Source: Escherichia coli (lineage in GTDB: Bacteria; Pseudomonadota; Gammaproteobacteria; Enterobacterales; Enterobacteriaceae). Taken from it: a stretch of 244 bases of DNA. A model generated the notes under the pieces. That model was given only the letters and a program-made list of their open reading frames with translations, was not told the origin of the DNA and made no database searches. The stretch lies in NCBI RefSeq assembly GCF_003334385.1, contig NZ_QOWN01000223.1; one strand, written 5' to 3'. Positions 1 to 244 of the stretch are shown here, piece by piece. Position 1 is the stretch's first letter, and each line of letters begins with the position of its first letter. The translations under genes were made by a program, and so were the position numbers.

Positions 1-134
1 CCGTATGCTTCGGTATCGCTGGCTGTTGCAGTGAAAGGAACCGCCTGCTCAATGTGCTCAAACTTCACCATGCAATTGACAGCAGTGTGATCTTTATCTG
101 CCCATTGCGGATTGCTTATTTTTTCCACATTCAT
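1..134 (-). CDS. Hypothetical protein, N-terminal fragment (5' end present, 3' end beyond window start). The 44 codons seen translate to MNVEKISNPQWADKDHTAVNCMVKFEHIEQAVPFTATASDTEAY. No family recognised.
   Basis: Reverse complement of 1-134 reads ATG AAT GTG GAA AAA ATA AGC AAT CCG CAA TGG ... GAA GCA TAC with no stop through the window edge. The ATG at 132-134 lies 6 nt downstream of an AGGAG Shine-Dalgarno. Amino-acid composition is balanced and protein-like, and codon choice is mostly common enterobacterial-type codons. The codon-aligned + strand frame is Cys/His-rich and looks like an antisense shadow. Confidence 0.7.
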   Translation of the reverse strand, partial: MNVEKISNPQWADKDHTAVNCMVKFEHIEQAVPFTATASDTEAY

Positions 135-140
135 GTTCAT

Positions 141-145
141 CTCCT
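141..145 (-). promoter_or_regulatory. Shine-Dalgarno / ribosome-binding site (AGGAG) for the downstream minus-strand CDS
   Basis: The + strand CTCCT at 141-145 is AGGAG on the minus strand. It sits 6 nt upstream of the ATG at 132-134 and directly abuts the ATG at 138-140. Confidence 0.6.
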
Positions 146-150
146 GTCTG

Positions 151-244
151 TCAGTATGCGCGCTGGAACAGCCCGATGCCTTCATTGTCATTTGTCGACG
201 TAATTTCATTACACACCATCCATGAGCCCGGAACTGAGGATAGT
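151..244 (-). CDS. Hypothetical protein, C-terminal fragment (5' end beyond window end). The 30 codons seen translate to LSSVPGSWMVCNEITSTNDNEGIGLFQRAY, then stop TGA at 151-153.
   Basis: This minus-strand frame is open from the right window edge to the TGA at 151-153 (+ strand TCA). Codon choice (CCG, GGC, CTG, CAG, CGC, ATC, GAA) looks more gene-like than the other two minus frames over the same stretch. The stop lies 16 nt upstream of the SD-preceded ATG of the next gene, a typical operon junction. The frame assignment is not unique (see findings). Confidence 0.45.
   Translation of the reverse strand, partial: LSSVPGSWMVCNEITSTNDNEGIGLFQRAY

Follow-up and report, generated by a model that had tools for sequence, protein, structure and literature searches.

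The window analysed here, a 244-nt stretch of Escherichia coli DNA, is the junction of a prophage tail-fibre gene and a downstream DUF4376 chaperone-type gene, and this junction is already annotated. The best explanation as a whole, which we hold with good confidence, is that two late prophage genes are co-transcribed, that the second has an AGGAG-directed start at the second of two neighbouring in-frame ATGs, and that the first ATG is a non-conserved by-product. The feature is an ordinary, already annotated Shine-Dalgarno (SD)-led start at an operon junction in a known kind of phage host-recognition cassette.

In the proposed mechanism, two late genes from the host-recognition cassette of an E. 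coli prophage would meet on the minus strand, with the tail fibre first and a presumed chaperone of the DUF4376 type second. The 30S subunit would pair with AGGAG (145-141), and this pairing would bring the P site over the second ATG (134-132), which would make MNVEK the beginning of the protein. The first ATG (140-138) would be too near the SD for decoding.

Anatomy and gene identities of the junction

The junction was read directly on the minus strand as CAG CGC GCA TAC TGA cagac AGGAG ATG AAC ATG AAT GTG GAA AAA ATA. An earlier note on this DNA had given the order TGA-cagac-AGGAG-ATG-AAC-ATG-AAT-GTG, which is exact. The tail-fibre stop TGA (153-151) is followed by cagac (150-146), the SD AGGAG (145-141, also identified by pairing with the 16S 3' end), the first ATG (140-138), AAC (137-135), the second ATG (134-132), AAT (131-129) and an in-frame GTG (128-126). 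Both ATGs are in frame with the DUF4376 gene, and their coordinates agree with the SD spacings of 0 nt and 6 nt that the earlier note had assigned to them. The first is an improbable start and the second the probable initiation codon, giving MNVEKISNPQW. A +1-frame ATG (130-128) overlaps the in-frame GTG to form AUGUG (130-126); in the window allele this ATG is silent, as it opens a 4-codon ORF. An A6 run (119-124; GAA AAA A, from Glu-Lys-Ile codons) lies further downstream and is polymorphic, A6 or A7, between prophage copies.

The last 30 codons of the tail-fibre gene (...GIGLFQRAY) and its TGA occupy 151-244 of the minus strand. This frame has no stop from the window edge to the TGA, ends in ...LSSVPGSWMVCNEITSTNDNEGIGLFQRAY*, and has an annotated match. 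The 5' part of the DUF4376 gene, which is ORF-191 of the P-Eib phages, occupies 1-134 of the same strand with 44 codons, as assigned by Pfam and PHROG matches, and its frame meets no stop between 140 or 134 and the opposite window edge. Window positions 134-1 therefore encode the first 44 residues of the DUF4376 protein and positions 244-151 the last 30 residues of the fibre. From the fibre stop to the probable start runs a 16-nt intergenic spacer (135-150, minus strand; cagacAGGAGatgaac), and the gap to the first ATG is 10 nt.

The frequency of these motifs was compared with shuffled versions of the window. AGGAG-N6-ATG was observed once against an expected 0.01, and 2 of 200 shuffles reached this count; the combination of SD and start is a real signal, beyond chance. 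ATG-N3-ATG was observed twice against an expected 0.48, with the other copy inside the fibre gene (191-183). Since 17 of 200 shuffles held at least two copies, the double ATG alone is no more than chance.

The window is 100% identical to E. coli prophages whose RefSeq annotation reads tail fibre followed by DUF4376 protein. Its fibre end is identical to WP_001537173.1, a 'phage tail-collar fiber domain-containing protein' of E. coli G1/2, and the upstream protein belongs to PHROG tail-fibre families with E-values down to 5e-124. The DUF4376 protein matched Pfam DUF4376 (PF14301) over residues 75-184 of its 202-aa long form (E = 2.9e-20) and phrog_1141 'tail fiber protein' (E = 2e-79). Nearly all of its 105 homologues carry PF14301. 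NCBIfam held no family for the DUF4376 protein and gave only sub-threshold collagen-repeat matches for the fibre.

An AF2 model of the DUF4376 protein had a mean pLDDT of 91.7. It consists of an N-terminal three-stranded sheet with a helix (residues 5-55 of the long form), followed by a DUF4376 domain of helix, beta-hairpin and helix. The first strand begins at residue 5 of the long form, and residues 1-4 are coil ahead of it. In this model, a two-residue N-terminal extension would not obviously disturb the fold.

Two further signals in the window were regarded as spurious or due to chance. Plus-strand ORFs of 49 and 37 aa lie antisense to the two conserved coding regions. The Rfam scan of the window returned only a sub-threshold Mu-gpT-DE RNA (RF03012; 16.6 bits against a gathering score of 49, E = 0.17) at 132-156 of the minus strand, across the stop, SD and start; 25 nt were matched of a 53-position model, and this match was rejected as chance.

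Start codon of the DUF4376 gene

The candidate starts were compared by the DtoStart metric, which measures how far the start codon lies from the 16S 3' end (PMC9841429). For AGGAG, DtoStart equals 7 plus the spacer, a relation derived from the worked examples in PMC9841429 and checked on secF and hdhA. The values were 7 for the first ATG (140-138), 13 for the second ATG (134-132), 17 for the +1-frame ATG (130-128) and 19 for the in-frame GTG (128-126). The optimum is about 13-14, and initiation at a DtoStart of 11 is hardly detectable; a short aligned spacing physically keeps the 5' codon out of the P site (PMC9841429). The second ATG falls within the near-optimum range of about 12-15, and the first falls outside it.

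AGGAG provides at least 4 nt complementary to the 16S 3' end. Together with the next four bases it reads AGGAGAUGA, one mismatch from the extended SD AGGAGGUGA. The duplex energy with the 16S 3' end was -6.2 kcal/mol for the core and -9.5 kcal/mol when the duplex was extended through the first AUG. Besides AGGAG, no second anti-SD-complementary motif of at least 4 nt was found within 30 nt upstream of any candidate start.

On this geometry, the second ATG is more likely the start, with a protein beginning MNVEK, and the first ATG is improbable: with a spacer of 0 and a DtoStart of 7, it touches the SD and falls inside the extended SD complement. The first ATG is an accident within the ribosome-binding site, a by-product of the sequence 3' of the SD core, where AGGAG-AUGA resembles AGGAG-GUGA.

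Seven divergent junctions (L004, L005, L007, L008, L010, L011 and L013; 48-72% protein identity) were compared at the DNA level. In all seven, the gene starts at the codon equivalent to the second ATG, 8-19 nt after a homologous fibre C-terminus; the fibres preceding orthologous DUF4376 genes end in ...FQRIS*, ...FQRIA* or ...CQRIA*. A purine-rich SD-like run was seen by eye in 6 of the 7 spacers, and the formal SD definition applied to 5 of the 7, with none in L004 and L007. The start position is thus conserved among orthologues, as in a canonical SD-led initiation site. The earlier note had proposed an orthologue alignment to see whether the MN- extension is conserved, and it is not: the place of the first ATG is taken by GGG, GAT, ACA, AAT or CAA, and once by GTG. 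In L004, an in-frame TGA stands directly before the ATG, at -1.

The protein comparison gave the same picture. The second ATG aligned with the starts of P0007, P0014, P0017, P0018, P0021 and P0033, and its column is also where 10 of the 12 closest homologues start, with more distant ones differing by 0-2 residues. An MNMN start was found in none of the 105 homologue cluster representatives. The A-run also has a counterpart in the orthologues, as it derives from conserved E-K-I codons seen in them.

Decoy starts were observed at other junctions. In L010 (805-825), the fibre stop overlaps an in-frame ATG (gcATGA), and L011 (1480-1503) has a GTG two codons upstream that abuts its SD. In L013 (875-890), the codon equivalent to the second ATG is a GTG, and an ATG standing two codons before it is well spaced from its own SD (MIVKIEK). 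Since the N-terminus varies by 0-2 residues in the family and L013 has this well-spaced upstream ATG, a two-residue extension would be structurally tolerable, and MNMNVEK is possible on protein grounds.

Public annotations conflict at this point, and both of the N-termini that the earlier note had offered, MNMNVEK and MNVEK, occur in them. The start was placed at the first ATG in AF151674 (ORF-191C of phage P-EibC, a GenBank record of 2000) and at the second ATG by RefSeq PGAP and in PhiR5_2. It is highly improbable that the first ATG is the true main start, giving MNMNVEK as for ORF-191C in AF151674. No ATG comes before it in the open frame that follows the upstream stop, a public record starts the gene there, and close relatives (L012) keep ATGAACATG, but its zero spacer and DtoStart of 7 are far under the functional range in PMC9841429, and no other SD lies upstream to serve it. 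Moreover, the first ATG is not conserved, L004 carries a stop at -1, and the codon is frameshifted in two of the natural alleles described below (b and c; at least 23 genomes and propagated phages). The result favours the RefSeq start (MNVEK) over the older GenBank start of ORF-191C (MNMNVEK), which has little importance beyond annotation hygiene.

It is also unlikely, although less so, that both ATGs are used, with an SD-led main product from the second ATG and a minor MNMNVEK product (long form MNMNVEKISNPQW) made by reinitiation, perhaps with no help from the SD, at the first ATG after the TGA. In bacteria, ribosomes that have terminated are known to scan to the nearest start and reinitiate there. 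The stop is just 10 nt upstream of the first ATG on the same transcript, and the extension appears to be tolerated, given the variation of 0-2 residues at the family N-terminus and the coil at residues 1-4 of the long form in the AF2 model. Against a selected MNMNVEK isoform stand allele b and all the divergent orthologues, which have no in-frame first ATG, and in the window allele the intact SD would re-register a scanning ribosome on the second ATG.

Natural alleles of the start region

The start region (window 119-140, minus strand) was found in three natural alleles. Allele a, that of the window, has ATGAACATG with A6 and would give MNVEK (or MNMNVEK). It was present as a 100% copy in 12 complete genomes and, with differences only in flanking SNPs, in 3 more; PhiR5_2, PhiR12_5 and the P-Eib records also carry it. 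Alleles b and c share a 1-nt deletion (AGGAGATGACATG; short form ATGACATG). Allele b, with A6, gives MNVEK only and was found in 3 complete genomes. Allele c, with A7, gives MWKKISNPQW and was found in 21 complete genomes, as well as in PhiR5_1, PhiR12_3 and the metagenome contig L017. PGAP calls all three alleles intact. The corresponding loci are L014 2593-2640, L015 2594-2640, L017 ~780-830 and L020/L021 ~1293-1340.

The first ATG is frameshifted away in alleles b and c, which were seen in at least 23 genomes as well as in propagated phages. In allele b, it becomes ATG ACA TGA, a 2-codon ORF, and the gene is intact from the second ATG at a DtoStart of 12. Allele c is the commonest (21 of 28 genomes), and both window ATGs are unproductive in it. 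Its best-placed ATG (DtoStart 12) leads into a 13-codon dead-end ORF, and its sole full-length start is the third ATG (equivalent to 130-128, the AUG of AUGUG) at a DtoStart of 16.

The earlier note had preferred the second ATG, and this preference is supported by the DtoStart values (13 against 7), by the orthologue alignments of DNA and protein, and by the natural deletion allele. Two observations go beyond that reading, namely the identity of the tail-fibre/DUF4376 cassette and the fact that the commonest allele uses neither of the two ATGs.

The coexistence of A6 and A7 could be read as a slippage-tolerant or phase-variable start, in which the ATG cluster and the A-run keep the ORF open at either tract length and tune chaperone output. 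A6 and A7 do occur on the same deletion haplotype, both with a full-length ORF. A7, the most frequent allele (21 of 28 genomes), is also carried by the propagated PhiR5_1 and PhiR12_3, and its best-placed ATG (DtoStart 12) yields a 13-codon ORF while the productive ATG is at a DtoStart of 16. We consider this reading most improbable. A single A6-to-A7 change is enough to account for the observation, the A-run is explained by conserved Glu-Lys-Ile codons, and the gene seems dispensable in the laboratory, so a weak start would be tolerated without any special mechanism. A tract of 6-7 nt is also short for a phase-variable locus. A phase-variable homopolymer switch, in which tract length would turn the ORF on and off, was rejected, as A6 and A7 both keep a full-length ORF via different ATGs.

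A related proposal, to which we give a very small but slightly greater chance, is that the three ATGs in two frames and the A6/A7 tract form a slippage-buffered start region that shifts initiation between DtoStart 12-13 and 16, via tract-length changes or via transcriptional or +1 slippage on A7. If this were true, the DUF4376 gene would keep an open frame at a varying output, and the supply of assembled side fibres would vary with it. The simplest reading is weak selection on the gene in the laboratory, with spare ATGs that happen to keep the ORF open. The allelic series is a natural illustration of how SD geometry and spare ATGs set the usable start, and it holds no new mechanism.

The suggestion that the DUF4376 gene is dispensable in the laboratory comes from IS-disrupted copies in propagated phages. 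In PhiR12_1 (L023 1405-2605), the gene is interrupted after about codon 31 (window ~39/40), and its remainder lies ~2.6 kb further on. The insert carries a transposase and an ATP-binding transposition helper in an IS21-like layout. The matches of PhiR12_2, PhiR12_2_star and PhiR12_4 end at the same base as in PhiR12_1, and the insert itself was inspected in PhiR12_1 only. Laboratory E. coli hosts are listed for all four phages.

Overlapping AUGUG/GUGUG starts have been described in E. coli (PMC9841429), and the window AUGUG (130-126) likewise places two frames downstream of one SD. Unlike those sites, where the ambiguity arises at DtoStart 12/14, the window AUGUG lies at 17/19, and its AUG frame stops after 4 codons.

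Co-transcription, cassette mobility and the presumed chaperone

The 16-nt gap had led the earlier note to suggest co-transcription of the two genes, and the anatomy of the region agrees. A compact spacer of 8-19 nt, mostly with an SD-like run, is conserved across orthologous junctions. By consensus scan, neither the fibre gene nor the junction has a promoter-like site on the sense strand; the five promoter-like matches obtained all lay antisense. Nothing resembling a terminator hairpin separates the fibre and DUF4376 genes, and a 9-bp terminator-like hairpin stands directly after the DUF4376 stop. Because of the conserved SD-containing spacer, the lack of a sense-strand promoter-like site or terminator-like hairpin between the genes and the hairpin after the second gene, we infer that the fibre and DUF4376 genes are probably co-transcribed, which is well supported by the anatomy.

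The further suggestion of possibly coupled translation keeps that strength. A ribosome terminating at the TGA would cover the SD, which begins 5 nt after the stop, so reinitiation is possible. Coupling would not be required, because the SD is predicted to be unstructured and independent initiation is feasible; it is only possible. The junction RNA fold was no more stable than that of shuffles (z = 0.15), and the SD was unpaired in both MFE and centroid folds, so an RNA structure masking the SD was rejected. The signs of a translationally coupled pair, an overlapping or abutting stop-start (ATGA, TGATG) or a masked SD, are likewise absent, with a gap of 16 nt (10 nt to the first ATG); coupling by reinitiation is still possible.

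In a survey of 530 genomes, spacers of 9-15 bp had the highest SD presence, with the SD held within the intergenic region (PMC2784483). Compared with this canonical SD-led operon junction, the window spacer of 16 nt is just outside the 9-15 bp band and has the same arrangement. The sole peculiarity is the non-functional-looking ATG immediately 3' of the SD core.

The window matched 28-29 of 5,426 complete E. coli genomes. The matches were always chromosomal and usually lay in several prophages per genome, with a median of 3 matching places per genome and up to 8. No window match was found in the plasmid collection. Matches were also found in isolated PhiR-series phages and in the P-EibC, P-EibD and P-EibE GenBank fragments. 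As only 28-29 of the 5,426 complete genomes have it, the module is expected to be absent from the strains usual in start-site mapping.

In E. coli G1/2, the exact copy (L001) is part of a P2-like tail cluster, where baseplate V/W/J/I homologues are followed by a 532-aa tail-collar fiber and a 200-aa DUF4376 protein. After the DUF4376 gene come a terminator-like hairpin and then a convergent block of tail-tube, sheath and tape-measure genes. G1/2 also holds 100% copies of the central 105 nt beside lambdoid-type fibres. Elsewhere, lambdoid 'prophage tail fiber N-terminal domain' proteins are encoded before the junction and YadA-like (Eib) adhesins after it.

Pairwise comparison identified a ~960-bp cassette common to P2-like and lambdoid prophages, made up of the final ~130 codons of the fibre and almost all of the DUF4376 gene. 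Its identity is ~88-89% overall and ~100% around the junction (L001 5698-6658 against L016, L015, L003, L018 and L020). Given this unit, which is common to both contexts, the window lies mid-way in a mobile fibre-tip/partner cassette, and the N-terminal beta-sheet domain is co-inherited with the fibre tip. The cassette of fibre tip and DUF4376 gene, with its junction intact, is thus common to P2-like and lambdoid E. coli prophages, including those carrying eib.

The gene of the window is the same as ORF-191 of the ECOR-9 prophages P-EibC/D/E (AF151674-6), which lies upstream of the eib genes. These records match window positions 163-1 (query positions 82-244) at 99.4% identity. Unlike the P-Eib ORF-191 loci, the exact-match copy of G1/2 is in a P2-like prophage without a downstream eib gene. 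In a literature search on the PhiR phages and ORF-191/Eib, none of the papers listed matched ORF-191.

In the lambdoid copies, a YadA-like trimeric autotransporter gene (eib family, immunoglobulin-binding) lies 0.4-0.8 kb after the DUF4376 gene. It was located at L002 970-2484, L014 3998-5113, L015 3570-5081 and L016 3988-5244 (where it runs beyond the retrieved sequence), and from ~2490 in L018/L019 and from 2560 in L010. Its place directly behind the fibre module is that of a moron-like cargo gene, and no such gene is present in the P2-like L001.

The E. coli DUF4376 protein is presumed to be a tail-fibre chaperone by analogy, from its family membership and gene position alone. In Alteromonas phage V22 and Campylobacter CJIE1, active fibres require a DUF4376 protein whose gene directly follows that of the fibre (PMC7289586, PMC10579305, PMC7882524). 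The CJIE1 H-fibre needs co-expression of its downstream DUF4376 gene (PMC7882524), and the A5 fibre is chaperone-independent (PMC10579305). Like V22 gp27, A5 gp9 and the CJIE1 H-fibre partner, the E. coli gene is immediately downstream of a fibre gene on the same strand, and its protein, like theirs, combines a variable N-terminal domain with a C-terminal DUF4376 domain. In that group too, the fibre tip is exchanged between unrelated phage types together with its partner gene (PMC10579305). However, the N-terminal domain of the E. coli protein is unrelated in sequence to the published DUF4376 chaperones, and, unlike them, IS-disrupted copies of its gene are found in propagated phages. The comparison draws on distant DUF4376 relatives and has no solved-structure match in its support: a PDB sequence search with the DUF4376 protein gave nothing significant (best E = 0.73), and Foldseek against the PDB gave no match below E = 0.13.

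Lambda Tfa, Mu U and P2 G (Caudo_TAP, PF02413) occupy the same position directly after a fibre gene and have the same presumed role. Membership of the DUF4376 protein in this Caudo_TAP Tfa family was considered and rejected, as neither a PF02413 match nor fold similarity to TfaMu was found. Some DUF4376 homologues (P0076, P0082, P0048 and P0071) are fused to PF02413 or to a Tfa-like N-terminus. With P0057 included, the fused partner of the DUF4376 C-terminal domain is a Tfa-like N-terminus (MTFTMEDEARTL..., PF28596) or PF02413 (Caudo_TAP). Such fusions indicate domain shuffling between two kinds of fibre-partner protein.
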